DNA of 64,000 nt, from positions 434,001 through 498,000 of the forward strand of contig JASTWF010000333.1 of assembly GCA_030390025.1 (NCBI GenBank), read 5' to 3'. Both the position numbers and the translations under genes were made by a program. The stretch is from Squalus acanthias. Its lineage: Eukaryota. The stretch's first letter is position 1; each line of letters opens with the position of its first letter. The notes beneath the pieces are model-generated. The model did not search any database, was not told the DNA's origin, and was given only the letters and a program-made list of their open reading frames with translations. Of this stretch, positions 22,235 to 41,500 are shown one piece after another.

Positions 22235-25200
22235 GGTATGGCTCCCAGAGATGTGGCCGCCCGCTTTGAACGTCCAGTCCTCGGGGGAGGCAGAGATCAC
22301 GAGTGAAGGGCCGCCTGCTGGGCCGAGCAGGGCGGAGCCACGAACTGCAAGCCCCGAGGTTAGGGAGGCGGAGTCAGCGGAGGCGGAGCCAGCGACTGTG
22401 ATGGAACCCCAGGTCATCCCGATGGAAGTCTCGGAACCCGGTCCGTCCGTCACGGAAACCCCGCCCATAGCAACTCCCCGTAGGTCAAGTAGAGAACCCC
22501 AACCCAGGAGGATGTGGTCATGTCCCCAGACGGCCCCAAGGCGAAAATTTAAGGTTAAGATAACCCAGATACAGACCGGCCACATTGCAGCAATAACAGG
22601 CTGCGGCAGATCAGAGGGAAGGGTCAGTGCCCTCCCACCGTCGGGAAGAGCTCGCAGCAGCCTTCTCAGAATTTAAAGGGGCCGCCCTGAGAACGGGCGG
22701 CACTGTAAAGTTATTAGTTTTAAGTTTTAAGTTTTTAGTTCAAGGTTAAGTTTATAGGTTTTTAATAAGGTTAAGATTGTAGTGTTTTTAACAGAAAACG
22801 ATAAAATGATGGGAGCTTTAAAGATAGGTTTAGTTGAAGGTTATTCAGCGAACGTTGAAGTTTACGTGAGGCGAGGTCAGGGGACCCGCTCACCCTTCAC
22901 AAAAGCCAGAGACTCTTGCGAGGCTGGCTACCTCATTCTATCTGATCACAGGAACCAAGGAAGGATGGAACGAATTCTAGTATTGCTCGCGGCAATCGGA
23001 TGTGGATTGGCCTATCGAGGCCGCACCAAGGATGTCGTGGTGTTTGGATGTTCCGGGGACACGGCCCCCATCGCGGTGGATGGGACCGGAAGACGGGAGG
23101 CAGAGGAGACCAGCACCTATTTCCACAAGGGAAGGTGGCCAGGATGGCTGGGAACGAACTCAACGGAGTATTCTAGCACATCGGGGTTTGCCTACAAAGA
23201 GACTTCTTTACTGTGCCCCAAAGTAAGGATCATCGCACCCAGGATCAGCGTCACCGTCGGCAAACGGATTTGTTTGACTTGTAGTGGGAAGGTCCCATTA
23301 AGCCGATGGTGGTGGCTGCGAAAGCTGAGCAAAACTATGAGGAACTCTTCGGTCGAGTGGGAACGACTGGGTAATAATACCCATCGGACAATTACGGGGA
23401 CAAACGGACAAGTGAAAGTCTGTTGGGACAAATGGTGGGAACCGGATGAGGGAATTTATGTATGTATGTGGGGGTCAAAGTACGTTTGCCCCAAAGGCAT
23501 CTCCATATTTTTCATTAATCAATGGCAGGATAACGGACAGGGGATGAGGTGGGATGCGAGCACCAGGGGGTGCGGAGCCCCATTCTCCCCGATTCCAGTA
23601 AATGCCACTGAGCTCATTACGCGCCCACGCAAAGCCCCGCCCACGATTCCGGTGGTTCTAGCTGAGGAAGAAGGGTGCCCTAAAACTAGTAAGGGACCCG
23701 GGAATGGTTTGGTACTGGTCCCCACAGACCAGATACTATTTCAGGGGGTACATTACGCGGTGGCCTCGGTGATTTTAAATCTCACCGAGGTGCGGTTACC
23801 AGAGTGGTGCCCCAAAAAGACGGAACAGTTGTATCAGGTCCTGTTGACCAAGATGTTCAGACAATTTTACGAATTCGATTTCGCGGAAATCGATAAAACA
23901 AGTTTGTACACCGCACCACAGGAAGTTTTGAATCAAGCAGGGAGGCGAAGAAGGGGTTTGGTGAACGATGCGTTCACTGCTTTTAACACGGGTACATCTG
24001 TGGTCAACGCTCTAGACAGTGTGGAGCTGCAGACCCAGATTAATGGTTTAAAGACACAATTAAAAGACATTCTAACAGATGAGAATAAAGTGGTAGGGTC
24101 GGGTCTACACGAGGACCAAGCCATGACTCTCCATTTAAAGGAAATTATAGCAGAGTTGGAGAAACATGCAAAGACGGTAAATGCCCTGATTAGGGAAGAT
24201 CGGAATGCATCCGATCAAGCTGCGCAGAACGAGGTGTGCGTGCTCTACGGGGCGTGGTTACTGGGCGAGGGCCGCAGTAATTTGGAGGATTTAAAACAAG
24301 GTTTGGTTCCGTCCTGGATAAGTAACAAACACCTGCGGGCGCTCCACCCTTTTCAGAACGCATTAAGTCCGTGCCAGCTCAGGCTAGCTTCAGAAGCATA
24401 CCCAGTCCCCGTGGACTGCGGACGATCAAACCATACTATTATGGGAATAGTATTACGCATGCCGGTTTTGGGCGACACAGCAAAGCCCGCACCGGTGTAT
24501 CGAGTAGAGAACATTGGTGTCATTCAGGGGGGAGCCCACATTCGTTACGCAGCGGTTCCACCTTACGTCATCCGCTGGGAACAAACGATGACAGGTACAG
24601 ATCTCTCTGGTTGTCGTGGCAGGGGAGCACACATAATACTGTGCCCCCAGCACTTGAATGCCTTTTTAACACCACAGTGCGGGTTCAGAACGACTGGCGC
24701 CAAGTCCATGAATTGCACCATGGAGGCAATGGCACAAGATCATGTGCCTCCGCAGGTAGCATACATCGGGGGTGGAACATATTGTGTTACCACTGCAGCG
24801 CAACACTACCAGCATGGAAACCGTAGCCGGTGTCCGGTGAGTGACAGCAGTTTCTGTTTTAAACCCAGGGCGGAAGTTCAAGTAGCACAACAGCGAATCA
24901 TCCCAATCCCTGAACCATCCACTGTTCATCTCACAGTAAAAGAGAATTTCACCGACTTGCAGCGATTCGTCGCGCATTTTGGATACCTCATTCCCCCTCT
25001 CCCTGAACACCTCACCAAACTTTTAAAAGCCGTCGCGGTATCACAGAAACATTTTTACACATTAGAGCAGAAAACTGTCGAAATAGGAACAGACATTTTG
25101 GATATAGTAGTTCCACCGTGGTGGAATCTGTTCACTAATATTGAAGTGCCTTCATGGATCAGAATAGCCTCCCACATTTTAGTCGTATGCCAAGTTTTCA

Positions 25201-25769
25201 TTGTAGTGTACCTATTGGTCGTACATTGTAAAAGAGACAAGCGCCTCACCAAGCATGAAAACACGGGAGAGTGGCGAGAACGTTACGTGCGCGTGCACGA
25301 TGAAAGCACCGTGTGATCGGAAAAATGGCGTCACTCCCGCTCGCCACGTGCGCCGCGGAAGCCTGTACTCAATCGTGATTTTCAGAGAATTGTAAATACG
25401 TTGGGAACTCGACATGTTTTAAGAGTTGGTGTTGATTATTTTATGGTGATGGTGTTACAGTTAGAATTGATTGTTTGGTTTTGGGTTTTGTTTTTCCTTT
25501 CCCTGAATAAAAGATGAATATACAGGTGATACGAGAGGCATCGGCCTGGTTACGCCGGAAGGAAAACAAGTGGTGTAAGTTTAAGGGCAAATAATGCCTA
25601 CGGTGATATAAAATGTAATTTTCTTGGGAAATAAGGACGACACAGAGACCCTAATTAGGTTAAATTTATGGGATTAATTTGCTGGATTCGGAGAGAAATC
25701 GAGATAATATTGCTCACCACTATGATTTTTGATACGATAAGCGGAGTTATTCGCATCAACAGGAGGGAC
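22235..25769 (+). mobile_element. 5'-truncated upstream tandem copy of the ERV internal region (pol tail, env, 3' UTR)
   Basis: Near-identical to 33303-36842 (offset 11068-11073). It shares the LTR at 25770 with the full copy. Confidence 0.95.
22965..25316 (+). CDS. env: Envelope/fusion glycoprotein, copy 1 (783 aa from signal-peptide Met; frame open from 22782)
   Basis: Signal peptide MERILVLLAAIGCGLA, Ig-like motif, furin site RRRR (23943-23954) followed by hydrophobic GLVNDAFTAFNTG, a heptad repeat, a Cys-rich region and a C-terminal TM helix. Splice-acceptor-like TCTGATCACAG ends at 22951. Confidence 0.9.
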   Translation: MERILVLLAAIGCGLAYRGRTKDVVVFGCSGDTAPIAVDGTGRREAEETSTYFHKGRWPGWLGTNSTEYSSTSGFAYKETSLLCPKVRIIAPRISVTVGKRICLTCSGKVPLSRWWWLRKLSKTMRNSSVEWERLGNNTHRTITGTNGQVKVCWDKWWEPDEGIYVCMWGSKYVCPKGISIFFINQWQDNGQGMRWDASTRGCGAPFSPIPVNATELITRPRKAPPTIPVVLAEEEGCPKTSKGPGNGLVLVPTDQILFQGVHYAVASVILNLTEVRLPEWCPKKTEQLYQVLLTKMFRQFYEFDFAEIDKTSLYTAPQEVLNQAGRRRRGLVNDAFTAFNTGTSVVNALDSVELQTQINGLKTQLKDILTDENKVVGSGLHEDQAMTLHLKEIIAELEKHAKTVNALIREDRNASDQAAQNEVCVLYGAWLLGEGRSNLEDLKQGLVPSWISNKHLRALHPFQNALSPCQLRLASEAYPVPVDCGRSNHTIMGIVLRMPVLGDTAKPAPVYRVENIGVIQGGAHIRYAAVPPYVIRWEQTMTGTDLSGCRGRGAHIILCPQHLNAFLTPQCGFRTTGAKSMNCTMEAMAQDHVPPQVAYIGGGTYCVTTAAQHYQHGNRSRCPVSDSSFCFKPRAEVQVAQQRIIPIPEPSTVHLTVKENFTDLQRFVAHFGYLIPPLPEHLTKLLKAVAVSQKHFYTLEQKTVEIGTDILDIVVPPWWNLFTNIEVPSWIRIASHILVVCQVFIVVYLLVVHCKRDKRLTKHENTGEWRERYVRVHDESTV

Positions 25770-27432
25770 TGTAGAATTCGCAATATATCGCGATTTTATT
25801 AATAAGGAGAAAACACAGAGTTTCGTTGAAACAGCTTTTATTTCAGCAGAATGCTGACAGGTTTAAAGTGGACACAAGCAGCCTGTAAAATGGCCGCCGC
25901 ACCTCGTGACAGAACATTCTAGACTTTTCAACAGGCAGACAAGATGGCGTTCCAATAAACATTTGTGCAAGATCGATTAAGAGTCAGCACAGTGAAGATA
26001 ATACACGAGACATTATGGGTTTGCAGTATACACATAGATACTGAAATCGGTCTCCCAGGTACAAAGGAAAGCCATTGTACCGAGTAATCAAGGGCCCATC
26101 CAAAAGACATTAATATGTAAAATCCCAACGACTCTACGATGAGAGAGCCGTTAGCAGGTAGTTATACAGGACACTTGGAAGCCCCAAACCCCTCCAGGGA
26201 GAACACCGACCGATTTAACAATGGGAGAAATATTAACAGGTACTCAGACATTTACGAGTAGCCCCGAAACCCATTAAGAACGGAGATCACCCATACAAGA
26301 CATTTGAGCGCCAGACCTTAAACAAAAGAATGGACATTATAGTTGGGCGGGAAACGGAAGATTTTGCACTATAATTGCAGGCTCCAAACCGTCCATCTTT
26401 CTCTTGCTGCTCTTATCATCGTGGCTGCTCCTGTGCTCTTATCCGGTCGATTCGTAACCTCATGGCTGCTCCTGTGTACTCGTAGTTGGGCTTCTGCTTG
26501 CCTGTTGCCTCTTCTGAAAAGACTGTTGAACTTTCTGATCCGTTCGGATCTACCTCGTGTCGCGTAACGAAGACCTATATTGGTAACCGGTATCGGAACC
26601 AGAAGGCCCGAGAAGAGATGAGATGAGATGAGATGAGAAGAGAGGAAGACCATATCCATCGCCACGGTCAGTAAATCCCGACCGCGCCTGTAGGTCGATT
26701 AGCCAAGTTTTCCTCGCCAGGAAGACTTCTTCGAACTTATAACGAAACATATTGCATCGATGATAACTGGACTGTGTCCAAAGTAACTGGAATGTGAAAG
26801 CCACCAATACAGATCTTCATCACAGCAGACCTTCCAGCCTGCTAGCCGGAGCAGCAGAAGCAAGTAAACAAGTGGGACCAGGAGATCTCCTGACCGACAC
26901 GTGGGAGCTGCGGTGAAAAACATCCGATCAGCTATTCGGAATTTCTCCGAGTTATCACGAGTGGTGAGCATGAGTCTCGAAATCCTACGAATCTAGTTTA
27001 GGATAGATATTGATAGGGGAGGGTTTAAGGATTAAGGGTATTTGTAATGTGTGCCCCTATTTACTTTGTGCCGTTCGTTCCTCGTTTCCCTAAGATCGAC
27101 TATATAACTGTTTGTAAGATTGTACTGTCATTAATCTGTGCTTATGACATGTATTTCATAATCTTAAGTATCATGCAATAAAGATTTTCCATTTCGTACC
27201 ATTCAAACCGAGTCTACATGAGTTTCATCTCCATTACTGCTCTCGCATCTAAGTCCAGTGTCTAGAACCGTAAGGGAGAGTGATTCGAACCACTCACAGG
27301 TGTGTCTAGTGTTCCCAGACTGGCTGGAGACCAGAACAGGCAACAAGGCCTAGACCCGCACTGACATACAGGCTGCACAGAGCCGCGTGAATCTCACAGG
27401 CTGCGAGACACGCAGGGTCAGAATCCCTTACA
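25770..27432 (+). repeat. LTR 1 (shared between tandem copies), 1663 bp
   Basis: Begins TGTAG after AGGAGGGAC and ends TTACA before the PBS. It is a direct repeat of 36843-38505, with 3 substitutions seen. Confidence 0.95.
26345..26410 (+). promoter_or_regulatory. Candidate LTR core promoter
   Basis: GGGCGG GC box, CGGAAG ETS-like motif and TATAAT (26370-26375), followed by a pyrimidine-rich initiator-like tract. An alternative TATATAA lies at 27101-27107. Confidence 0.45.
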
Positions 27433-27436
27433 GAAA

Positions 27437-29247
27437 ATGGCGACCGCGGCAGGACACTGGCAGCGAGAGGGTAGTGTGTTAGATTTTGGAATGACTGTAC
27501 GAAATGTTATGCAGGAAAAGATAGCGGATTATGTGTTTGGAAAGGTTAATCTAACTAAGAAATGGATAAGTGAATTGTTAGCGGATAAAAGCCCGTTAGA
27601 GGCAGCCGAAAGGTGGACAGATAGTAAAGAACATAGAAAGACACTTGAGAAAGCAGTCTGGCTTATGTGTTACAAAAGGCAGGTTCAGATTTCAAACCAG
27701 ACCATTACAGCGCTAGTAGCTCGAATCAGTCATTTAGAGGGAGAAATGGAGGAGAAGGTTTCTGGAGGGGAGGTGCTCATTAAGAATTTAAATGAGTTAC
27801 ACCAAGAAAGCCAGGAAGTCTCCAGTCACCTTAAAACAAGGATAGATTATCTCGAGTGCCAGGTCACTGAGGCAAAATTGAATGAGAGCAGGTTAAAGGA
27901 AAGATGTAACTGCCAAGCTGCCCAGATAAGAACTCAAGAAGAGAGCTTAACGGGGGTTAGGGCGGCATATAAGTTGGCCCTTGAGGATAAGTTTCAGGGA
28001 GCCGATCATAGCGCCTGCCAAAGGGAGATAGAGCACCTCAAAAAGGCCGTGAACAATGCGAACGGCATGGTGTGCCTTATCAATCCGTCGGCACACCAGC
28101 CGCTAGTAAGCGAGAGATTTAAAAAATCCCCACCAAGTAAAGCAGAAGAAGTAGTAGCCACTGTGCCCTCCGCGCCACCCAGCTATTCGGAAACCTGGGT
28201 TAGGGAGGAAGCAATGGAAGAAACAAAAGAGCCCATTGAAAAAGAAGTAGGAAAGGGATCGTTGTATCCAGTTACGGGTATTAAAAGGGGCCCAAGCAGA
28301 AACGGTGGGGAAGAACCGGGGGATCTCCTCGGACAGCTGGTGTTGCCTCACAGTTCACATCAGCTGAGAGCTATGATAAATCACGTACGGAAGCTGACCG
28401 AGGCAGACGACCCTTCCGTACATTTCAGAGAAGTTGAGCAAGCCGCAGCCATTAACGGCTGCGATGATGGGGAGACAGCAAAAATGCTGCTGTTCTCATT
28501 AGACAGCTCGGTCCTTCAGTGTCTCTCAGGCGAGAGCAAGAGGGGAACCAAGAGTTATGAGGAATTAAAGAATGAGGTTCTGGAAGTGTTGGGGGCGAAC
28601 GACGAAGGTCCGTTTGCTAGAGTGGGACAGACAGTGCAGATGGAGGGAGAACCCCCGAAGGTTTTTGCCGACAGGCTGTGGCCAGTATATGAGCGCAGCT
28701 GCCGAGGTGCGCCCGAGCGCGAAGATGTGGAAGGCACCGCTTTAACTCATTGGCTTAGTGCATAATAGCCAACAGTTTACCAGCCGTCAGAGAGCAGGCA
28801 AAGGCATGGTTTGATCCCAATGACCCCAACATTACGGAAGAGTCGGTCTTGAATCGACTCACGTTAGGTTATCGCAATATAAGGGGTATGGCAACACGTC
28901 CCCTTAAGGGAAGAGTACATGAGGTACGACCCGCAGCCCCGTATCAAAGAGAGTGGCATCAGGAGGGTAATCGCGCCCCACAGGCAGGTAATGCTTGTTA
29001 CGGGTGTGGGAAGACAGGGCACTGGCGCAAGCATTGCAGGAACCCTTGGAAGGATTCCAAGGATAAAAATCCCGCGGTCCGAGCCCAGGCGCCTGTCCCG
29101 GCTAAGGAAGCTAGTGCACCCACCCCTCCCGACGACCTCGAAGCAGTGTTAGGAGCCATGCGCAAGCTGGTCTTGAATGCGCGTGGACAGGTGGCGGTCG
29201 CAACCGGCCCCGTAGGTGCCGCAGGACCGTCTAATAGTACCCCATGA
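27437..29247 (+). pseudogene. gag: gag (~603 aa if a single 1-nt deletion at ~28762 is repaired)
   Basis: A 442-aa ORF (coiled-coil, PSAPPSY, capsid-like helical region) continues in the -1 frame as IIANSLPAVREQ... to the zinc knuckle CYGCGKTGHWRKHC. Confidence 0.88.
27438..27455 (+). promoter_or_regulatory. Primer-binding site, tRNA-Arg(TCG)
   Basis: TGGCGACCGCGGCAGGAC is the reverse complement of GTCCTGCCGCGGTCGCCA, the vertebrate tRNA-Arg(TCG) 3' end as recalled. It starts 5 nt after the LTR-terminal CA. Confidence 0.85.
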
Positions 29248-32200
29248 CTAGAACCGGCGCAGCCCGTCTACCTGTGTCCGCTTAGCTATGATGCGTGGAG
29301 GCGACCTGTGGTGGAGATGGAGGTAGAGAAACAGAAGGGTAGTTATTTGTTGGACACGGGAGCTTCTTGCACCATAATCCATACAGATAACCCTTTTGAC
29401 TCGCCGCTATCTACCAAGGTCCCATTCACGTTAGCAGGGTTCACAGGAAAAGAACAGGCTGGCACGTTTTCCCTTCCGCTATCCATTCGTTTAGGAACAC
29501 TTCGCCTTAAGTGGAAGTGTATACTGATGGCATGGCAGAAGGGGGGTGGAAGAGGTATTCTCGGGTCTGATCTCCTAGCGGGACACGGGATCCTCGTGGA
29601 CCTCAGAAATCACTGTCTCTGGGGGGCTAAAGGTGAAAAAGGCGAGGTAATAGTGATTCCGGGGGAGGAAGAAACAGGGGTCCTGTGTACCGTACAGCCA
29701 TCCGGAGGCTACGACCTCAGGCTTATGGTCGCAGATGTCCCAACGGACATGCAAACGTACGTGTCAGATAATATGCACGCGTTTGCAACCCACAAGCACG
29801 ATTGTGGGAGAGTGGTCGGGTTTGAGGTCAGCGTAGATGGGGACCCCATGACCCGACCCCAAAAGCAGTATAACTTCCCCAAAGAAGCAGAACCCGATAT
29901 GGAGACAGCAATGTCTTCCTTGGTGCAGCAGGGCGTGTTGAGGCCGATAGCCACACACGTGAACTCCCCATTATGGCCGGTTAGGAAGCCGGATAATTCG
30001 TGGAGAGCCACGGTGGACTACAGAGTCCTTAACAGTAACATTCCCGCCTGCGCGCCCACAGTAGCAGCAGTTGCTGACCTAATAGGGAGCATCCCAGCGT
30101 CCGCGACCACGTTCACGGTGCTGGATATCTCGAACGGTTTTTGGTCCATCCCGCTGCGGCGAGAGGACCAGTACAAGTTTGCCTTTACTTTCAAAGGGCA
30201 ACAGTACACGTGGAACTGTCTGCCACAGGGTTTCCACAATAGCCCCAGTATTTTTCATCAGTGTATGGCAGGAAGTTTAAAGGAGTTTAGTCAGCCCAAT
30301 CAGATATTGCAGTACGTGGATGATTTGCTCCTATTTACGGATTCAAGGGAGGAGCATGGACCACTACTGGACGAGTTATTGGAGCTGTTAGCGAGAAAGG
30401 GTTTTAAAATAAACCCTAAGAAAGCACGTATCGGTCAGCGGGAAGTAAAATTCCTGGGACTGACCATACGCGCTGGAGAAAGAGCCATAGACAAAGCAAG
30501 GAGGGAGTCGGTGCAAGAATTACCGATTCCCAACAACGTAAGGGGTGTGAGGTCCTTCTTGGGACTGACCGGTTACTGCAGGGATTTTATCGAAGATTAT
30601 GCGGCCACAGCGGCGCCGCTCCTCCGACTCCTCCATAAGGGGGTGGAGTGGTTTTGGGACGAGGGCTGCCAAGCAGCCTTCGAGAAGTTAAAAAGGGATC
30701 TGCAGACCGCGCCAGCCTTAGGGGCCATAGATGGGGGGAAGGAGTTTTTCCTGGAGGTAGCTGCCAGCGGAGACAGCTTAAGCGCCGTGCTGCTCCAAGA
30801 GCGTCACGGCAAGCTGAGGCCGGTTGTCTATTCATCCAGGGTGTTAACGGATGTGGAGAGAAGTTTCTCCAATTGCGAAAGGCACCTTTTAGCCACGCAT
30901 TGGGCTGTGAAAAGATCAGCGATCTTCACAGGGCTCTCTCCCATCACTCTCCTCACACATCACACACCAACTAAGATGCTTCTGGATGGGAGGATTAAAG
31001 ACGGGACCGTAAGCAGCGCACGCATTGCGCGTTGGACCCTTCTCCTCTCCCAGTTGGATCTCAGAGTAAAAGGTCTTTGCGAGCCAAGGCTTGCGGCCAA
31101 TTTGGTATACCCCGGTACAGCCCACCGGTGTTCGGTGGAAGGGGTATGGGACGTCAACATAGGTTTACGGGCCGGAATACATCCCACTGGGCGCGAGATT
31201 TATGTTGATGGGTCTAGCACAGTATCCGCTGGCGAGCGACTCACAGGGTGTGGAGTTTATGACCCTGCGGCAGACCTTGCCCTGGCGATCAAGCTCCCTA
31301 GCACCATGAGCGCGCAGCAAGCTGAGCTGTCTGCCGTGGTGTACGTTGTGACCCACCCAGACATTTTCCCAACCCCATACACGATTTGCTCGGACAGTAT
31401 GTTCACCTGCAATTCGTGTACGGAATACCTGGCCATTTGGTCCCGCCGTGGATACACCTCCGCGGACGGGCGACCTTTAACGGTGAAGCCCTTGCTGGAA
31501 AAGATCTTAGCAGCAGCAGTAGGGGAGGAAGGAGAGATTTTCATCCATAAGGTGAAAGCTCACTCCTCCACAGAGCCCCGTGGGGAGGGCAACCGGCAGG
31601 CGGATGCGCTAGCCAGGGAAGGTGCCCGCGACGGCACTTTCTGGAACCCTTATAGGACCGGACCCATAGCAGCGGTCCGAGGCGGGGACGGGAATCCCGG
31701 GAACACCAGGGTAGCATTGCCCCTAGACCTTAAGACCGTCCAAACCCAGGATCCCGCCCTAAAAGCAGTCCTAAAAACGATTGCTGAGGGGAGGCAGGTA
31801 GAAGGTCCGTACAGTACGGCAACCCTCTCAGTTAAGGAAGGCATGCTGTTCCGCGAGGAGCAGTGGGTTGTGCCGCAGCAGCACAGGAGGGAATTCCTCC
31901 AGTTGGCTCACGAGGGACCAGGGGCAGGGCACCCCGGGCCCGAGGTTACCTGGCAACGGGTAGAGCAAGCGGGATGGTGGCCAGGGCTCAGGGAACAAGT
32001 CCGCGAGTTCTGCGCAAACTGTCTTGTGTGCGCTGCAAACAACCCAGACCCCCAGAAAAGGAAGGTGCCCATGGGACACGTAAGAAGGGTAGAGGGACCA
32101 TGGCAGTCGATACAGATCGACTATATAGGACCCCTGCCCACCACCCAGGGAGGTTATAAGTACTGCCTCGTCCTGGTGGATGTGTTTTCCAAGTGGGTGG

Positions 32201-33744
32201 AAGCCTTCCCTTGTCGAACAGCTACGGCACTGGGTACAGCAAAAATCTTGGTCCGGGAAGTGTTCTCGCGGTGGGGACTTCCCCGTTTTGTGGAGTCAGA
32301 CCAAGGGAGTCATTTCACCGGCCAGGTGATGCAGAACACCCTCATGCTTTTGGGCATTGAAGGGAAGTGGCACGTAGCACACAATCCCCAGTCATCCGGG
32401 ATTGTTGAACGTATGAACCGGACCCTGAAGGAGAAATTGAGGAAAGAGACTAGGAACTCGCCCCAAAAATGGGCGGAAGTTCTGCCTTTAGTCCTCATGG
32501 GGGTCCGGGCCAGTCAGTCTAAAAGTACGGGGTACTCCCCGCACGAGGTAATGACCGGCAGGCTCATGCGAACCCCCACCCATGTGCTAGCCCCGGTGCT
32601 CACTGAGGGTCAGCTCCAGGAGATAAGCAGGGACAAGTTCGCCCAGACTCTCTTGGAGCGCCTGAAGCAAGTTTATGAGCAGGCGGCTGGGAACATGGGA
32701 AGGCAGCATCAGGGCAATCGCTTGTTGCTGGAACCCCGCAAAACGCGGGAGTGGGAAGTAGGAGACCAGATCATGGTCAGAAACTACGCCAGAGTAGGGA
32801 GTCTGGAACCACTGTATATGGGACCCTACAACATTGTAGACAAGGCGAGTCCCATGGTTTACGCCGTAAAAGTACCACGGCGCATTAAGTGGTTCCACAT
32901 AAACCAATGCAAACTGTACCAGCCAGGTGCGCAAGGGAAAACTACAGGGGTACATCCCGCCAACGGGAAAGCACAGCCCCAGGTAGGACCACAAGGCACA
33001 CAGGCAGGCATAGCAGCTTGCATCAGGGGAAGGGAAATCCCGGACGATCATGCAGCGTTTTTCTGGAATTGGGGGTTAGATGAGGAAGAATTCAGGGTAC
33101 CCGGGTCAGATGAGGATAGTGCAGATGAGGATAGTGATGACGACGGGTGGTTTCGGAGGAACGGTCCCTTTTACGATATGGAGGGGACGGGGGCTGCAGG
33201 TAGAGATCCACACAGGGTGGACACACAAGCTGCAGGTCCCGAAGACAGGAGGGAGGAGCTAGAGGAGGCAGGGCCAGCCGCTATGGGAGCACAGAGAGTA
33301 CCGGTATGGCTCCCAGAGATGTGGCCGCCCGCTTTGAACGTCCAGTCCTCGGGGGAGGCAGAGATCACGAGTGAAGGGCCGCCTGCTGGGCCGAGCAGGG
33401 CGGAGCCACGAACTGCAAGCCCCGAGGTTAGGGAGGCGGAGTCAGCGGAGGCGGAGCCAGCGACTGTGATGGAACCCCAGGTCATCCCGATGGAAGTCTC
33501 GGAACCCGGTCCGTCCGTCACGGAAACCCCGCCCATAGCAACTCCCCGTAGGTCAAGTAGAGAACCCCAACCCAGGAGGATGTGGTCATGTCCCCAGACG
33601 GCCCCAAGGCGAAAATTTAAGGTTAAGATAACCCAGATACAGACCGGCCACATTGCAGCAATAACAGGCTGCGGCAGATCAGAGGGAAGGGTCAGTGCCC
33701 TCCCACCGTCGGGAAGAGCTCGCAGCAGCCTTCTCAGAATTTAA
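29248..33744 (+). CDS. pol: pol polyprotein: protease, RT, tether, RNase H, integrase and long C-terminal tail; in frame with gag behind one TGA
   Basis: LLDTGAS and ILGSD (PR); LPQG and YVDD (RT); degenerate LEVAAS (tether); YVDGS, AQQAEL, SDS, VKAH and GNRQADALA (RNase H); HHCC, IDYIG, SDQG, SSGIVE and GPY (IN). No stop from 29248 to 33741. Confidence 0.95.
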   Translation, partial: LEPAQPVYLCPLSYDAWRRPVVEMEVEKQKGSYLLDTGASCTIIHTDNPFDSPLSTKVPFTLAGFTGKEQAGTFSLPLSIRLGTLRLKWKCILMAWQKGGGRGILGSDLLAGHGILVDLRNHCLWGAKGEKGEVIVIPGEEETGVLCTVQPSGGYDLRLMVADVPTDMQTYVSDNMHAFATHKHDCGRVVGFEVSVDGDPMTRPQKQYNFPKEAEPDMETAMSSLVQQGVLRPIATHVNSPLWPVRKPDNSWRATVDYRVLNSNIPACAPTVAAVADLIGSIPASATTFTVLDISNGFWSIPLRREDQYKFAFTFKGQQYTWNCLPQGFHNSPSIFHQCMAGSLKEFSQPNQILQYVDDLLLFTDSREEHGPLLDELLELLARKGFKINPKKARIGQREVKFLGLTIRAGERAIDKARRESVQELPIPNNVRGVRSFLGLTGYCRDFIEDYAATAAPLLRLLHKGVEWFWDEGCQAAFEKLKRDLQTAPALGAIDGGKEFFLEVAASGDSLSAVLLQERHGKLRPVVYSSRVLTDVERSFSNCERHLLATHWAVKRSAIFTGLSPITLLTHHTPTKMLLDGRIKDGTVSSARIARWTLLLSQLDLRVKGLCEPRLAANLVYPGTAHRCSVEGVWDVNIGLRAGIHPTGREIYVDGSSTVSAGERLTGCGVYDPAADLALAIKLPSTMSAQQAELSAVVYVVTHPDIFPTPYTICSDSMFTCNSCTEYLAIWSRRGYTSADGRPLTVKPLLEKILAAAVGEEGEIFIHKVKAHSSTEPRGEGNRQADALAREGARDGTFWNPYRTGPIAAVRGGDGNPGNTRVALPLDLKTVQTQDPALKAVLKTIAEGRQVEGPYSTATLSVKEGMLFREEQWVVPQQHRREFLQLAHEGPGAGHPGPEVTWQRVEQAGWWPGLREQVREFCANCLVCAANNPDPQKRKVPMGHVRRVEGPWQSIQIDYIGPLPTTQGGYKYCLVLVDVFSKWVEAFPCRTATALGTAKILVREVFSRWGLPRFVESDQGSHFTGQVMQNTLMLLGIEGKWHVAHNPQSSGIVERMNRTLKEKLRKETRNSPQKWAEVLPLVLMGVRASQSKSTGYSPHEVMTGRLMRTPTHVLAPVLTEGQLQEISRDKFAQTLLERLKQVYEQAAGNMGRQHQGNRLLLEPRKTREWEVGDQIMVRNYARVGSLEPLYMGPYNIVDKASPMVYAVKVPRRIKWFHINQCKLYQPGAQGKTTGVHPANGKAQPQVGPQGTQAGIAACIRGREIPDDHAAFFWNWGLDEEEFRVPGSDEDSADEDSDDDGWFRRNGPFYDMEGTGAAGRDPHRVDTQAAGPEDRREELEEAGPAAMGAQRVPVWLPEMWPPALNVQSSGEAEITSEGPPAGPSRAEPRTASPEVREAESAEAEPATVMEPQVIPMEVSEPGPSVTETPPIATPRRSSREPQPRRMWSCPQTAPRRKFKVKITQIQTGHIAAITGCGRSEGRVSALPPSGRARSSLLRI

Positions 33745-34036
33745 AGGGGCCGGCCGCCCTGAGAACGGGCGGCACTGTAAAGTTATTAGTTTTAAGTTTT
33801 AAGTTTTTAGTTCAAGGTTAAGTTTATAGGTTTTTAATAAGGTTAAGATTGTAGTGTTTTTAACAGAAAACGATAAAATGATGGGAGCTTTAAAGATAGG
33901 TTTAGTTGAAGGTTATTCAGCGAACGTTGAAGTTTACGTGAGGCGAGGTCAGGGGACCCGCTCACCCTTCACAAAAGCCAGAGACTCTTGCGAGGCTGGC
34001 TACCTCATTCTATCTGATCACAGGAACCAAGGAAGG

Positions 34037-36388
34037 ATGGAACGAATTCTAGTATTGCTCGCGGCAATCGGATGTGGATTGGCCTATCGAGGCCGCACCA
34101 AGGATGTCGTGGTGTTTGGATGTTCCGGGGACACGGCCCCCATCGCGGTGGATGGGACCGGAAGACGGGAGGCAGAGGAGACCAGCACCTATTTCCACAA
34201 GGGAAGGTGGCCAGGATGGCTGGGAACGAACTCAACGGAGTATTCTAGCACATCGGGGTTTGCCTACAAAGAGACTTCTTTACTGTGCCCCAAAGTAAGG
34301 ATCATCGCACCCAGGATCAGCGTCACCGTCGGCAAACGGATTTGTTTGACTTGTAGTGGGAAGGTCCCATTAAGCCGATGGTGGTGGCTGCGAAAGCTGA
34401 GCAAAACTATGAGGAACTCTTCGGTCGAGTGGGAACGACTGGGTAATAATACCCATCGGACAATTACGGGGACAAACGGACAAGTGAAAGTCTGTTGGGA
34501 CAAATGGTGGGAACCGGATGAGGGAATTTATGTATGTATGTGGGGGTCAAAGTACGTTTGCCCCAAAGGCATCTCCATATTTTTCATTAATCAATGGCAG
34601 GATAACGGACAGGGGATGAGGTGGGATGCGAGCACCAGGGGGTGCGGAGCCCCATTCTCCCCGATTCCAGTAAATGCCACTGAGCTCATTACGCGCCCAC
34701 GCAAAGCCCCGCCCACGATTCCGGTGGTTCTAGCTGAGGAAGAAGGGTGCCCTAAAACTAGTAAGGGACCCGGGAATGGTTTGGTACTGGTCCCCACAGA
34801 CCAGATACTATTTCAGGGGGTACATTACGCGGTGGCCTCGGTGATTTTAAATCTCACCGAGGTGCGGTTACCAGAGTGGTGCCCCAAAAAGACGGAACAG
34901 TTGTATCAGGTCCTGTTGACCAAGATGTTCAGACAATTTTACGAATTCGATTTCGCGGAAATCGATAAAACAAGTTTGTACACCGCACCACAGGAAGTTT
35001 TGAATCAAGCAGGGAGGCGAAGAAGGGGTTTGGTGAACGATGCGTTCACTGCTTTTAACACGGGTACATCTGTGGTCAACGCTCTAGACAGTGTGGAGCT
35101 GCAGACCCAGATTAATGGTTTAAAGACACAATTAAAAGACATTCTAACAGATGAGAATAAAGTGGTAGGGTCGGGTCTACACGAGGACCAAGCCATGACT
35201 CTCCATTTAAAGGAAATTATAGCAGAGTTGGAGAAACATGCAAAGACGGTAAATGCCCTGATTAGGGAAGATCGGAATGCATCCGATCAAGCTGCGCAGA
35301 ACGAGGTGTGCGTGCTCTACGGGGCGTGGTTACTGGGCGAGGGCCGCAGTAATTTGGAGGATTTAAAACAAGGTTTGGTTCCGTCCTGGATAAGTAACAA
35401 ACACCTGCGGGCGCTCCACCCTTTTCAGAACGCATTAAGTCCGTGCCAGCTCAGGCTAGCTTCAGAAGCATACCCAGTCCCCGTGGACTGCGGACGATCA
35501 AACCATACTATTATGGGAATAGTATTACGCATGCCGGTTTTGGGCGACACAGCAAAGCCCGCACCGGTGTATCGAGTAGAGAACATTGGTGTCATTCAGG
35601 GGGGAGCCCACATTCGTTACGCAGCGGTTCCACCTTACGTCATCCGCTGGGAACAAACGATGACAGGTACAGATCTCTCTGGTTGTCGTGGCAGGGGAGC
35701 ACACATAATACTGTGCCCCCAGCACTTGAATGCCTTTTTAACACCACAGTGCGGGTTCAGAACGACTGGCGCCAAGTCCATGAATTGCACCATGGAGGCA
35801 ATGGCACAAGATCATGTGCCTCCGCAGGTAGCATACATCGGGGGTGGAACATATTGTGTTACCACTGCAGCGCAACACTACCAGCATGGAAACCGTAGCC
35901 GGTGTCCGGTGAGTGACAGCAGTTTCTGTTTTAAACCCAGGGCGGAAGTTCAAGTAGCACAACAGCGAATCATCCCAATCCCTGAACCATCCACTGTTCA
36001 TCTCACAGTAAAAGAGAATTTCACCGACTTGCAGCGATTCGTCGCGCATTTTGGATACCTCATTCCCCCTCTCCCTGAACATCTCACCAAACTTTTAAAA
36101 GCCGTCGCGGTATCACAGAAACATTTTTACACATTAGAGCAGAAAACTGTCGAAATAGGAACAGACATTTTGGATATAGTAGTTCCACCGTGGTGGAATC
36201 TGTTCACTAATATTGAAGTGCCTTCATGGATCAGAATAGCCTCCCACATTTTAGTCGTATGCCAAGTTTTCATTGTAGTGTACCTATTGGTCGTACATTG
36301 TAAAAGAGACAAGCGCCTCACCAAGCATGAAAACACGGGAGAGTGGCGAGAACGTTACGTGCGCGTGCACGATGAAAGCACCGTGTGA
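34037..36388 (+). CDS. env: Envelope/fusion glycoprotein, copy 2 (783 aa; identical protein to copy 1; frame open from 33854)
   Basis: Same features as copy 1. Furin site at 35015-35026. Acceptor-like CAG at 34021-34023. Confidence 0.9.
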   Translation: MERILVLLAAIGCGLAYRGRTKDVVVFGCSGDTAPIAVDGTGRREAEETSTYFHKGRWPGWLGTNSTEYSSTSGFAYKETSLLCPKVRIIAPRISVTVGKRICLTCSGKVPLSRWWWLRKLSKTMRNSSVEWERLGNNTHRTITGTNGQVKVCWDKWWEPDEGIYVCMWGSKYVCPKGISIFFINQWQDNGQGMRWDASTRGCGAPFSPIPVNATELITRPRKAPPTIPVVLAEEEGCPKTSKGPGNGLVLVPTDQILFQGVHYAVASVILNLTEVRLPEWCPKKTEQLYQVLLTKMFRQFYEFDFAEIDKTSLYTAPQEVLNQAGRRRRGLVNDAFTAFNTGTSVVNALDSVELQTQINGLKTQLKDILTDENKVVGSGLHEDQAMTLHLKEIIAELEKHAKTVNALIREDRNASDQAAQNEVCVLYGAWLLGEGRSNLEDLKQGLVPSWISNKHLRALHPFQNALSPCQLRLASEAYPVPVDCGRSNHTIMGIVLRMPVLGDTAKPAPVYRVENIGVIQGGAHIRYAAVPPYVIRWEQTMTGTDLSGCRGRGAHIILCPQHLNAFLTPQCGFRTTGAKSMNCTMEAMAQDHVPPQVAYIGGGTYCVTTAAQHYQHGNRSRCPVSDSSFCFKPRAEVQVAQQRIIPIPEPSTVHLTVKENFTDLQRFVAHFGYLIPPLPEHLTKLLKAVAVSQKHFYTLEQKTVEIGTDILDIVVPPWWNLFTNIEVPSWIRIASHILVVCQVFIVVYLLVVHCKRDKRLTKHENTGEWRERYVRVHDESTV

Positions 36389-36833
36389 TCGGAAAAATGG
36401 CGTCACTCCCGCTCGCCACGTGCGCCGCGGAAGCCTGTACTCAATCGTGATTTTCAGAGAATTGTAAATACGTTGGGAACTCGACATGTTTTAAGAGTTG
36501 GTGTTGATTATTTTATGGTGATGGTGTTACAGTTAGAATTGATTGTTTGGTTTTGGGTTTTGTTTTTCCTTTCCCTGAATAAAAGATGAATATACAGGTG
36601 ATACGAGAGGCATCGGCCTGGTTACGCCAGGAAGGAAAACAAGTGGTGTAAGTTTAAGGGCAAATAATGCCTACGGTGATATAAAATGTAATTTTCTTGG
36701 GAAATAAGGACGACACAGAGACCCTAATTAGGTTAAATTTATGGGATTAATTTGCTGGATTCGGAGAGAAATCGAGATAATATTGCTCACCACTATGATT
36801 TTTGATACGATAAGCGGAGTTATTCGCATCAAC

Positions 36834-36841
36834 AGGAGGGA
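36834..36841 (+). promoter_or_regulatory. Short polypurine tract
   Basis: AGGAGGGA lies one base before the LTR-initial TG; the same tract is at 25761-25768. Confidence 0.7.
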
Positions 36842-36842
36842 C

Positions 36843-38505
36843 TGTAGAATTCGCAATATATCGCGATTTTATTAATAAGGAGAAAACACAGAGTTTCGTT
36901 GAAACAGCTTTTATTTCAGCAGAATGCTGACAGGTTTAAAGTGGACACAAGCAGCCTGTAAAATGGCCGCCGCACCTCGTGACAGAACATTCTAGACTTT
37001 TCAACAGGCAGACAAGATGGCGTTCCAATAAACATTTGTGCAAGATCGATTAAGAGTCAGCACAGTGAAGATAATACACGAGACATTATGGGTTTGCAGT
37101 ATACACATAGATACTGAAATCGGTCTCCCAGGTACAAAGGAAAGCCATTGTACCGAGTAATCAAGGGCCCATCCAAAAGACATTAATATGTAAAATCCCA
37201 ACGACTCTACGATGAGAGAGCCGTTAGCAGGTAGTTATACAGAACACTTGGAAGCCCCAAACCCCTCCAGGGAGAACACCGACCGATTTAACAATGGGAG
37301 AAATATTAACAGGTATTCAGACATTTACGAGTAGCCCCGAAACCCATTAAGAACGGAGATCACCCATACAAGACATTTGAGCGCCAGACCTTAAACAAAA
37401 GAATGGACATTATAGTTGGGCGGGAAACGGAAGATTTTGCACTATAATTGCAGGCTCCAAACCGTCCATCTTTCTCTTGCTGCTCTTATCATCGTGGCTG
37501 CTCCTGTGCTCTTATCCGGTCGATTCGTAACCTCGTGGCTGCTCCTGTGTACTCGTAGTTGGGCTTCTGCTTGCCTGTTGCCTCTTCTGAAAAGACTGTT
37601 GAACTTTCTGATCCGTTCGGATCTACCTCGTGTCGCGTAACGAAGACCTATATTGGTAACCGGTATCGGAACCAGAAGGCCCGAGAAGAGATGAGATGAG
37701 ATGAGATGAGAAGAGAGGAAGACCATATCCATCGCCACGGTCAGTAAATCCCGACCGCGCCTGTAGGTCGATTAGCCAAGTTTTCCTCGCCAGGAAGACT
37801 TCTTCGAACTTATAACGAAACATATTGCATCGATGATAACTGGACTGTGTCCAAAGTAACTGGAATGTGAAAGCCACCAATACAGATCTTCATCACAGCA
37901 GACCTTCCAGCCTGCTAGCCGGAGCAGCAGAAGCAAGTAAACAAGTGGGACCAGGAGATCTCCTGACCGACACGTGGGAGCTGCGGTGAAAAACATCCGA
38001 TCAGCTATTCGGAATTTCTCCGAGTTATCACGAGTGGTGAGCATGAGTCTCGAAATCCTACGAATCTAGTTTAGGATAGATATTGATAGGGGAGGGTTTA
38101 AGGATTAAGGGTATTTGTAATGTGTGCCCCTATTTACTTTGTGCCGTTCGTTCCTCGTTTCCCTAAGATCGACTATATAACTGTTTGTAAGATTGTACTG
38201 TCATTAATCTGTGCTTATGACATGTATTTCATAATCTTAAGTATCATGCAATAAAGATTTTCCATTTCGTACCATTCAAACCGAGTCTACATGAGTTTCA
38301 TCTCCATTACTGCTCTCGCATCTAAGTCCAGTGTCTAGAACCGTAAGGGAGAGTGATTCGAACCACTCACAGGTGTGTCTAGTGTTCCCAGACTGGCTGG
38401 AGACCAGAACAGGCAACAAGGCCTAGACCCGCACTGACATACAGGCTGCACAGAGCCGCGTGAATCTCACAGGCTGCGAGACACGCAGGGTCAGAATCCC
38501 TTACA
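36843..38505 (+). repeat. LTR 2 (3' LTR), 1663 bp
   Basis: TGTAG...TTACA, immediately followed by satellite DNA. Confidence 0.95.
38250..38255 (+). terminator. Candidate proviral polyadenylation signal
   Basis: AATAAA 250 nt before the LTR end (27177-27182 in LTR 1). Confidence 0.6.
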
Positions 38506-41500
38506 CACCCTGAATCATCTTCACACACACACACACCCTGAATCATCCTCACACACACACCCTGAATCATCCTCACACACACACACCCTGAATCATCCTC
38601 ACACACACACACACCCTGAATCATCCTCACACACACACACAAACCCCCTGAATCATCCCCACACACACACCCTGAATCATCCTCACACACACATCCTGAA
38701 TCATCCTCACACACACACACACACCCTGAATCAGCCTCACACACACACACCCTGAATCATCCTCACACACACACACGCTGAATCACCCTCACACACACAC
38801 CCTGAATCATCCTCACACACACACACACCCTGAATCATCCTCACACACACACACACCTGAACCATCCTCACACACACACACCCTGAATCATCGTCACACA
38901 CACACACCCTGAATCATCCTCACACACACACACCCTGAATCATCCTCACACACACACACACCCTGAATCATCCTCACACTCACACACCCTGAATCATCCT
39001 CACACACACACACACCCTGAATCATCGTCACACACACACACCCTGAATCATCCTCACACACACACCCTGAATCATCCTCACACACACACACACCCTGAAT
39101 CATCCCCACACACACACCCTGAATCACCCTCACACACACACACACCTGAATCATCCTCACAAACACACACACCGTGAATCATCCTCACACACACACACAC
39201 CCTGAATCATCCTCACACACACACACACCCTGAATCATCCTCACACACACACACCCTGAATCATCCTCACAGACACACACACCCTGAATCATCCTCACAC
39301 ACACACACACCCTGAATCATCCTCACACACACACCCTGAATCATCCTCACACACACACACACACCCTGAATCATCCTCACACAAACACACCCTGAATCAT
39401 CCTCACACACACACACACCCTGAATCATCCTCACACACACACACACACCCTGAATCATCCTCACACACACACACACCCTGAATCATCCTCACACACACAC
39501 ACACCCTGAATCATCCCACACACACACCCTGAATCATCCTCATACACACACACCCTGAATCCACCTCACACACACACACACCCTGAATCACCCTCACACA
39601 CACACACCCTGATTCATCCTCACACACAAACACACCCTGAATCAACCTCACACACACACACACACCCTGAATCACCCTCACACACAAACACACACATCCT
39701 GAATCATCCTCACACACGCACACACCCTGAATCACCCTCACACACACACACCCTGAATCACCCTCACACACTCACACACCCTGAATCATCCTCACACACA
39801 CACACATCCTGAATCACCCTCACACACACACACACACTGAATCACCCTCACACACACACACACCCTGAATCATCCTCACATTCACACACACCCTGAATCA
39901 TCCTCACACACACACACACACCCTGAATCATCCTCACACACACACACACCCTGAATCATCCTCACACACACACACACCCTGAATCATCCTCACACACACA
40001 CCCTGAATCATACTCACACACACACACCCTGAATCATCCTCACACACACACACACACTGAATCATCCTCACACACACACACACCCTGAATCATCCTCACA
40101 CACACACACACCCTGAATCATCCTCACACACACACACAACTGAACCATCCTCACACACACACACACCCTGAATCATCCTCACACACACACACCCTGAATC
40201 ATCCTCACACACACACACCCTGAATCATCCTCACACACACACACACCTGAATCATCCTCACACACACACTGAATCATCCTCACATACACACACCCTGAAT
40301 CATCCTCACACACACAGACACACCCTGAATCACCCTCACACACACACACACCCTGAATCATCCTCACACACACACACACACACCCTGAATCATCCTCACC
40401 CACACACACACACCCTGAATCATCCTCACACACACACACACCTGAATCGTCCTCACACACACACACACACCCTGAATCATCCTCACACACACACACACCC
40501 TGAATCATCCTCACACACACACACCCTGAATCATCCTCACACACACACACACCCTGAATCATCCTCACACACACACACCCTGAATCATCCTCACACACAC
40601 ACACACACACCCTGAATCATCCTCACACACACACCCTGAATCATCCTCACACACACACACTCACCCTGAATCATCCTCACACACACAGACACACCCTGAA
40701 TCATCCTCACACACACACACACCCTGAATCATCCTCACACACACACACACTGAATCATCCTCACACGCACAGACACACCCTGAATCATCCTCACACACAC
40801 ACACACCCTGAATCATCCTCACACACACACACCCTGAATCATCCTCACACACACAGACACACCCTGAATCATCCTCACACACACACACACACTGAATCAT
40901 CCTCACACACACACACACACCCTGAATCATCCTCACACACACACACACCCTGAATCATCCTCACACACACACACACCCTGAATCATCCTCACACACACAC
41001 ACACACACACTGAATCATCCTCACACACACACAAACACACCCTGAATCATCCTCACACACACACACACCATGAATCATCCTCACACACACACCCTGAATC
41101 ATCCTCACACACACACAAACACACCCTGAATCATCCTCACACACACACACACCCTGAATCATCCTCACACACACACACACACCCTGAATCACCCTCACAC
41201 ACACACACACACCCTGAATCACCCTCACACACACACACACACCCTGAATCATCCTCACACACACACACCCTCAATCATCCTCACATACACACACACACAC
41301 CTTGAATCATCCTCACACACACACACACCCTGAATCACCCTCACACACACACACCCTGAATCATCCTCACACACACACACCCTGAATCATCCTCACACAC
41401 ACACACAATCCCTGAATCATCCTCACACACACACACACCCTGAATCATCCTCACACACACACACACACACACACACACCCTGAATCATCCTCACACACAC

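Follow-up and report, generated by a model that had tools for sequence, protein, structure and literature searches.

The provirus-like element at positions 25770–38505 of a 64,000-nucleotide stretch of Squalus acanthias DNA (contig JASTWF010000333.1, positions 434,001 to 498,000; hereafter the window) raises the question of whether a lokiretrovirus or a canonical retrovirus lies in the genome of this cartilaginous fish. A first-pass annotation had described a very young, nearly coding-intact provirus and placed it in a loki-type lineage. The locus is here read, with good though incomplete confidence, as a member of an endogenous retrovirus (ERV) family that is very abundant and was amplified recently, arranged in a head-to-tail tandem whose units have one long terminal repeat (LTR) in common, and as a canonical retrovirus by its reverse transcriptase (RT). 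The nearest relatives overall are ERVs of sharks, skates, frogs and the coelacanth. By RT, its partners in the clade are ERV Pol proteins from a close relative, from frogs and from the coelacanth, outside the gamma/epsilon and foamy clades, with snakehead retrovirus (SnRV) as a neighbour of unsupported position.

The tandem locus and its family in the genome

The element has the canonical Retroviridae plan: TG..CA LTRs, a tRNA primer-binding site (PBS), gag-pro-pol-env order and, in the other copies of the family, a 4-bp target duplication. Both k-mer diagonals and global alignment reveal a direct repeat of 5.2 kb, longer than the LTR, in which positions 22235–27432 correspond to 33303–38505; between the two copies there are 4 substitutions and two indels, of 4 bp and 1 bp. 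The order of the locus is thus partial pol-env, LTR, gag-pol-env, LTR, with a second pol tail and env upstream of what had been called the 5' LTR. The limits given in the first-pass annotation (25770–38505) hold for the anatomy, since two 1663-bp LTRs and all genes of a complete LTR-gag-pol-env-LTR element are located within them, but the tandem, with its upstream partial unit from 22235, had been overlooked. The two LTRs (25770–27432 and 36843–38505) differ by 3 substitutions. At its left edge (22235) the repeat adjoins unrelated, SINE-like DNA, and exactly where the 3' LTR ends a 28-bp satellite array of 25.5 kb begins (unit ACACACCCTGAATCATCCTCACACACAC, ~915 copies). Because the flanks consist of SINE-like DNA and satellite, the window copy shows no readable target-site duplication. 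No further element homology was found with element probes in positions 1–22234 and 38506–64000 of the window.

In the stop-to-stop open reading frame (ORF) map of positions 25000–39500, four plus-strand frames are present (27365–28765, 28759–29247, 29248–33744 and 33830–36388), with no accessory ORF after env. The reading frames of the full unit are broken once, in gag near 28759–28765, in agreement with the single lesion noted earlier. Since gag is one continuous frame of 605–627 codons in four of six full-length copies, this break is specific to the window copy. The gag TGA (29245–29247) is in frame with pol, which begins directly after it at 29248. Gag matched no Pfam family, and its similarity to SnRV Gag is weak (E 8e-4) and of the coiled-coil kind. 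The tRNA 3' pattern of the PBS has 574 genomic matches, versus 0 for a control pattern, and ARAGORN calls tRNA-Arg (tcg) at all three of the PBS-pattern loci scanned. Genes for tRNA-Arg(TCG) also form a very large tandem array in the genome (G000:C26, ~38.99–42.2 Mb; period ~1623 bp), some units of which carry tRNA-Ser(GCT) as well.

Searches of the 3.71-Gb assembly with 1.5-kb probes from LTR, pol and env each returned matches to the element in 40 of 40 scored cases, with identities of 97–100% for the LTR and 99–100% for pol and env. The count of genomic copies proposed in the first-pass annotation gave thousands of first-look candidates (LTR 3594, pol 2754, env 1849), which are not copy numbers and which indicate a very abundant family. 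Nine other copies were examined: five full-length (~12.7 kb), three derivatives of 9.36 kb, and one triple-LTR tandem of the derivative with its duplication on the outer flanks. All nine have a perfect 4-bp target duplication, which confirms the LTR ends, and the LTR pairs of eight copies differ by 1–9 substitutions per ~1660 bp. In the 9.36-kb derivatives (L055-L062; G000:C3729, C7, C162, C1), gag and env are kept and ~3.4 kb of pol is lost; each derivative has its own 4-bp target duplication, and the derivatives were therefore mobilised in trans. Further pairs of pol or env matches lie ~11.0–11.1 kb apart at G000:C3482, C14, C9, C23 and C3782, which suggests more head-to-tail tandems. As a unit spacing of ~11.05–11.09 kb recurs at other loci, tandems are a habit of the family and not a peculiarity of this contig.

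No stop interrupts 56 of the 57 env and 36 of the 37 pol matches scored. The ratio of nonsynonymous to synonymous polymorphism (pN/pS) is 0.29 for env (45 pairs, 10 frames; one copy's broken env and the upstream duplicate of the window omitted) and 0.30 for gag (28 pairs, 8 frames; three broken frames omitted). As the family spread, purifying selection acted on both Env and Gag, and these ratios suggest that replication was envelope-dependent at that time. [quoted passage not shown] The description of the element as very young and nearly coding-intact is in keeping with the 3 LTR substitutions and the open pol and env frames, and the family may be active at present.

Public sequencing runs carry the family as well. 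Fourteen runs (6 studies, 5 coded organisms), none of them listed as RNA, contain 45–57% of the element's sampled words, and contigs from four independent runs cover 30 of 30 element bins; being assembled contigs, they are silent on expression. Because the contigs of these four runs span all bins, the family is not an assembly artefact. No joint skipping gag-pol was seen in the same contigs, which are likewise silent on splicing. In all four runs they do contain a length variant of the pol tail that is in frame relative to the window copy, with 39 extra bases (a 33-base repeat plus 6) at 33663–33695.

The envelope protein

The post-furin subunit of Env is 453 aa long, has 12 Cys and lacks CX6CC, in agreement with the Cys-rich subunit of the first-pass annotation. 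Searches with the single Env sequence against Pfam and PDB sequences returned nothing. An exhaustive search against 1.84 billion representatives recovered 51 relatives (a word-indexed search found only 2), the named ones being from the cartilaginous fishes Rhinoraja longicauda (76% identity), Pristiophorus japonicus, Mustelus asterias and Chiloscyllium punctatum and from the frogs Pelodytes ibericus, Mantella aurantiaca and Xenopus tropicalis. From the names of such relatives, the sequence would probably belong to a cartilaginous fish, as the first-pass annotation had proposed. A profile built from a 39-sequence alignment has its best matches among solved structures to foamy gp130 (8RM1, E 1.3e-4; 8RM0, E 7.6e-4). 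With hhalign, this profile matches the Env of L020, a 12,708-nt genome which we take, from its length, to be walleye dermal sarcoma virus (WDSV), at 96.3% (E 1.5e-9, 453 columns), nine foamy Envs at 93.8% (E 1.7e-7, 224 columns) and SnRV Env at 92.9% (E 3.6e-7, 271 columns). Neither the SnRV Env (L009:6131-9532) nor the WDSV-like Env (L020:5962-9648) has a Pfam family, yet both give profile matches to the window Env family, and through these matches they are tied to foamy Env and paramyxovirus F. Among the matches listed in the literature search, no link of WDSV or SnRV Env to the F/foamy fold was found.

The AlphaFold2 model of Env has a mean pLDDT of 61.7, with 80–94 in the core, and a pTM of 0.45. 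In the PDB library, Foldseek matches this model to the F protein of human parainfluenza virus 3 (E 7.5e-11) and also to the F proteins of respiratory syncytial, Newcastle disease, Langya and Nipah viruses. Matches in the viral library are to Env of walleye epidermal hyperplasia virus 1 (WEHV-1, E 9e-11) and of WDSV (E 1e-9), and also to mononegaviral and chu-like glycoproteins, baculovirus F and feline foamy gp130. When the post-furin part is searched in a protein atlas, the best cluster with a name scores 0.94 and has PF00523 in 80% of its members; with whole Env, the scores were weak (0.84 and 0.75). The F-protein fold, on which the first-pass annotation had staked its proposal, is thus indicated by the modelled structure. 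A likeness to the F proteins shows in the fold and in language-model features; by sequence, the Fusion_gly family PF00523 gives no match to Env at E up to 10, nor, with the limit set at E 1, to any of 20 relatives of Env. Judged from the model, Env is an F-type fusogen of the kind termed 'class Ib' in the work that describes the gp130 structures 8RM0/8RM1 (PMC11468914), with a 330-aa receptor-binding part before the cleavage site. A weak immunoglobulin-like signal is seen within the surface subunit (SU) at 34300–34540 (Env residues ~88–170; Pfam Ig_3, E 0.47). In the PDB, this stretch matches an antibody light chain and a junction adhesion molecule (both E ~1.3), and it is modelled as low-confidence beta strands.

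Pol and the lokiretrovirus question

Against solved structures, Pol matches Ty3 (E 8e-72), RT of the murine leukaemia virus (MLV) type (E 2.4e-70) and foamy protease-RT (E 7e-64), and the best solved integrase match is that of prototype foamy virus (PFV, E 3.7e-34). Pfam also gives a weak SH3_Tf2-1 match and no MLVIN_C domain in Pol, and no Pfam family matches the acidic, proline-rich tail of ~270 aa. In the translated sequence the tether lacks two catalytic Asp residues and the second RNase H retains D-E-D-D; the reported succession of a degenerate RNase H tether and an intact RNase H is therefore confirmed by Pfam and by the catalytic residues. As a marker, the dual RNase H separates the element from Ty3/Gypsy but is common to all retroviruses, so that it does not single out lokiretroviruses. 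The RT motifs are canonical (LPQGFHNSP and LQYVDDLLL), and the lokiretroviral motifs PFGY.N and IYVDDIL are not present.

For the phylogenies, reference genomes were drawn from IMG/VR and labelled by Pfam as gamma-type, epsilon-type and foamy-type (17 records of the last). SnRV is locus L009, identified by an exact Gag match to NP_043925.1, and lokiretroviruses are represented by the teleost Pol P0125, five of whose six peptides occur verbatim in published lokiretroviral sequences. The frog and coelacanth Pols were considered as possible lokiretroviral elements and ruled out, as four specific peptides had 0 matches each in the lokiretrovirus supplement. In the RT tree that includes P0125 (43 rows × 268 columns, 17 redundant or aberrant rows omitted), all 34 canonical rows, the window among them, form one group (97/94), and the lokiretroviral Pol lies outside as its sister. 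In the RT trees, Ty3/Gypsy rows separate from the window at 100/100, and the window also has the second RNase H (PF00075). The gamma/epsilon clade excludes the element (97/92 for RT; 100/99 for RT-RNase H-integrase), and the RT does not group with nine foamy genomes, which instead join P0013–P0017 (96/88 in the first RT tree; without support in the tree that includes the lokiretrovirus). Nesting of the RT in a Gypsy or epsilon/spuma clade, which would have spoken against the first-pass proposal, was accordingly not found among the rows of the RT trees. When the lokiretrovirus is left out, the window's clade is recovered at 82/90 (RT) and 98/98 (RT-RNase H-integrase). SnRV appears as the sister of this clade only in a quick tree (SH-aLRT 92), a position lost in the careful trees.

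The 3' half of Pol behaves differently. The tree of integrase alone puts the lokiretrovirus next to the members from the coelacanth and from frogs (96/72, inside a group at 93/89), and the integrase is of the loki/CGIN1 type as judged by this nesting, CGIN1/NYNRIN itself being outside the comparison. A protein search with the RNase H-integrase part returned no mammalian NYNRIN. The RT/integrase phylogeny advocated at the outset hence divides, the integrase standing beside lokiretroviruses but the RT inside the canonical retroviruses. Pairwise identities follow the same division: the window Pol shares 34% (RT), 37% (tether), 32% (RNase H) and 43% (integrase) with the lokiretroviral Pol, and 45%, 27%, 32% and 35%, respectively, with SnRV. 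Within the window's own clade, identities are 46–53% for RT and 44–47% for integrase, and integrase identities to SnRV, gamma, epsilon and foamy viruses are 33–37%. The RT is canonical, and the tether, the integrase and the kind of Env are closest to lokiretroviruses; the element may be a true mosaic, a point on which the statistics are not decisive. Two other sets of Pols show peculiarities. In P0123 and P0124, members of the same clade, SCAGD replaces the RT active site YVDD, and these elements may encode a dead polymerase. P0013–P0017 join foamy viruses in the first RT tree as given above and join gamma/epsilon in the integrase tree (94/91), a possible module exchange.

Several results weigh against a canonical, recently amplified and intact family. 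With the window and its close relative forced to join the lokiretrovirus in the RT data, the approximately unbiased (AU) test does not reject the union (delta lnL 17.3, p 0.106), and the tether-RNase H-integrase tree (33 rows × 619 columns) places the window, its close relative, P0123, the lokiretroviral Pol, the coelacanth and three frogs in one clade (99/96). The distinction between canonical and lokiretroviral is drawn by the RT alone and with a single lokiretroviral sequence. In trees without that sequence, the order among the window's clade, SnRV, foamy viruses and gamma/epsilon is unsupported, and the trees do not contain class II retroviruses, ERV-L, or the CmiERV and CmiFLERV/XtrFLERV sequences. 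The Env model is of moderate confidence, with TM-scores of ~0.5 at best. The counts of open frames cover just the matches with the best scores and are biased to intact copies, and in none of the six full-length copies examined base by base are all three frames open.

The same tether-RNase H-integrase clade, an integrase as close to the lokiretrovirus as to members of its own clade, the F-like fold of Env and the unrejected RT union would all be expected if the element were a lokiretrovirus, sister lineage of the canonical retroviruses, with a host range extended to cartilaginous fishes. This explanation is nevertheless considered very unlikely. The lineage is defined by RT phylogeny, and its Env is reported to match PF00523 with E 2.2e-7 (Wang and Han 2020, PMC7947760); here the RT tree sets the lokiretroviral representative apart, the RT is closer to SnRV and to its own clade, its motifs are canonical and PF00523 is not matched. 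In addition, the 330-aa SU contrasts with a pre-cleavage part of ~110 aa in the lokiretroviral Envs of the supplement to that paper, the profile matches of Env are to WDSV-like, SnRV and foamy Envs, and the AU test of the opposite constraint, with the lokiretrovirus forced outside all canonical rows in the tether-RNase H-integrase data, is likewise non-significant (delta lnL 15.8, p 0.145). The screen in that paper covered six chondrichthyan genomes and recorded 0 lokiretroviral elements. Of the loki-type assignment, the F fold and the tether-RNase H-integrase grouping thus stand, but the RT position, the RT motifs and PF00523 speak against it.

Less improbable, although still doubtful, is a foamy-like ERV (class III, foamy-like endogenous retrovirus or 'FLERV'), placed either in the shark-frog clade of Aiewsakun and Katzourakis or near the catshark 'ERV-Spuma'. 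Foamy gp130 is the best solved-structure match of the Env profile, foamy Envs align with it by hhalign, and the integrase is best matched by that of PFV. In foamy viruses Gag has no knuckle and Pol is translated from a separate mRNA, whereas the window Gag has a CCHC knuckle and pol lies in frame behind the gag stop. Foamy_virus_ENV, Gag_spuma and Spuma_A9PTase give no Pfam match, and in the first RT tree foamy viruses group with P0013–P0017 and not with the window's clade. The published frog and shark FLERVs, described as a cluster from pol only (PMC5512871), do share the shark-plus-frog host pattern seen here, and the catshark ERV-Spuma consensus has been published with LTRs and three ORFs (PMC10699275); these FLERVs are set beside the window family by description, not by sequence. 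An LTR retrotransposon carrying a passenger env, multiplied in germ cells and displayed as a tandem through an assembly artefact, has little to recommend it. The very high copy number, the spread of pol-deleted 9.36-kb derivatives and the position of the locus on an unplaced-looking contig beside satellite would fit such an element. However, the env pN/pS resembles that of gag, env is open in nearly all best matches, and the pol-deleted derivatives retain env. The tandem units differ from one another, the unit spacing recurs at other loci, one triple-LTR array has an outer target-site duplication, and contigs of four independent runs cover every bin.

The coordinates of the features are listed in Table 1. 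Upstream of the tandem, a LINE-type retrotransposon frame unrelated to the provirus is present on the plus strand at 6539–9169 (876 codons; endonuclease and RVT_1).

Table 1. Features of the tandem locus and its flank, in window positions.
Feature	Position	Strand	Basis or detail
Upstream partial tandem unit	22235-25769	+	near-identical to 33303-36842; pol tail, env, untranslated sequence, polypurine tract
Upstream unit, last part of pol tail	22235-22676	+	repeat alignment
Upstream unit, env frame	22758-25316	+	ORF of 852 codons; Met at ~22965
Middle LTR (5' LTR of the first-pass annotation)	25770-27432	+	1663 bp, TGTAG...TTACA
Middle LTR motifs	TATA-like ~27101, AATAAA ~27177	+	by eye
gag, 5' part	27437-28765	+	ATG 27437; coiled-coil N-terminal region; PSAPPSY late-domain motif ~28166
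Primer-binding site	27438-27455	+	complementary to 3' end of tRNA-Arg(TCG); overlaps gag ATG
gag frameshift lesion	28755-28765	+	sole break in the full unit
gag, 3' part	28759-29247	+	CCHC zinc knuckle 28996-29037; TGA 29245-29247
pol	29248-33744	+	in frame with gag 3' part; domain positions approximate
pol, protease (RVP)	DTGA at 29353	+	Pfam
pol, RT (RVT_1)	29980-30468	+	Pfam
pol, tether (RT_RNaseH_2/RT_RNaseH)	30655-31053	+	Pfam
pol, RNase H (RNase_H PF00075)	31195-31626	+	Pfam
pol, integrase zinc domain (Integrase_H2C2)	31870-32046	+	Pfam
pol, integrase core (rve)	32098-32388	+	Pfam
env	34037-36388	+	783 aa from Met 34037; signal-peptide-like start
env, furin site RRRR	35015-35026	+	residues 327-330, after 330-aa SU
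env, membrane anchor	~36227-36292	+	within 453-aa F-like fusion subunit
Polypurine tract (putative)	36830-36842	+	..AGGAGGGA.. directly 5' of 3' LTR; read from the sequence
3' LTR	36843-38505	+	1663 bp, TGTAG...TTACA; TATATAA 38174-38180, AATAAA 38250-38255
Flanking satellite, outside virus	38503-64000		period 28, 914.7 copies

Proposed replication and comparison with known retroviruses

For a canonical, tandem-forming retrovirus of this kind, the following replication cycle may be proposed. Transcription would start from the U3 promoter and reverse transcription would be primed by tRNA-Arg(UCG). Read-through of the gag UGA, which is in frame, would give Gag-Pro-Pol, budding would probably proceed through the PSAP/PPSY motifs, and furin would cut Env at RRRR. 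Fusion would then be carried out by the 453-aa subunit with its predicted paramyxovirus-F/foamy-Env ('class Ib') fold, and integration would yield the 4-bp target duplication. The purifying selection on Env and Gag over this period points to a family that spread through envelope-dependent particles and reinfection, not by intracellular copying alone. A more far-reaching extension, which we regard as speculative and on balance unlikely, is that the shark-skate-frog-coelacanth clade is the canonical partner of lokiretroviruses, the two having tether, RNase H and integrase in common as well as an Env of ancestral F type, and differing mainly in an RT replaced on one side, and that the family is still spreading as an infectious, envelope-dependent virus in living cartilaginous fish. 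If this were true, only their RT would make lokiretroviruses the 'sister of all retroviruses'.

Few young retroviruses with env and a high copy number are on record from cartilaginous fishes, and the dozens of open env and pol frames, together with purifying selection on env, suggest a very recent germ-line colonisation. The Env adds a branch from cartilaginous fishes and frogs to the F-like ('class Ib') fusogens and, through its sequence profile, connects the WDSV-like, SnRV and foamy Envs with one another. The link of integrase and tether to lokiretroviruses, if upheld with more sequences, bears on module exchange among the deepest retroviral lineages.

Among the named viruses, SnRV has the highest RT identity to the element, and it resembles the element in its RT motifs, in a gag closed by an in-frame stop immediately ahead of pol, in a PBS that matches a tRNA-Arg, in a homologous Env and in a coiled-coil N-terminal part of Gag. 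It differs in the isoacceptor, which is ACG in SnRV (ARAGORN call at one of two loci scanned) versus TCG in the window, in an env frame of 1134 codons versus 783 aa from Met, and in the low tether and integrase identities given above. The epsilonretroviruses share the Env type: L020 provides the best Env profile match, with 453 columns that begin at the CP..GP motif and reach the membrane anchor, the envelope polyproteins of WEHV-1 and WDSV are matched by Foldseek, and L020 likewise has a Gag CCHC knuckle and an in-frame gag stop. In contrast, the RT and whole Pol of the window fall outside the gamma/epsilon clade, MLVIN_C is lacking and no ORFs follow env. With foamy gp130 and with paramyxo- and pneumovirus F, Env appears to share an F-type fusion core and a receptor-binding part before the furin site; the missing Foamy_virus_ENV match, the Gag and gag-pol layout and the RT position set the element apart from foamy viruses. 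Lokiretroviruses are alike in their dual RNase H, F-like Env, and tether and integrase closest to the window's clade, and unlike in RT lineage and motifs and in an Env of smaller size, in which little sequence precedes the cleavage site and for which a PF00523 match is reported.

ERVs of sharks near SnRV and foamy viruses are already published. They include the SnRV-like and epsilon-like ERVs of the elephant shark (CmiERV lineage I), dated to 54–75 My (Han 2015, PMC4422223), a clade related to SnRV named 'Huo', described from all major vertebrate lineages (PMC6001957), the shark FLERVs (CmiFLERV) with which a frog FLERV clusters, known from pol only (PMC5512871), and the catshark consensus ERV-Spuma.0-Sca (PMC10699275). 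A survey of ERVs with identical LTRs also included 13 cartilaginous fishes (PMC10435555). As described in these sources, the published chondrichthyan ERVs resemble the window family in host group, in SnRV-like or foamy-like affinity and in the link between sharks and frogs; compared by description only, they differ in age, the elephant-shark insertions of 54–75 My standing against the near-identical LTRs found here.

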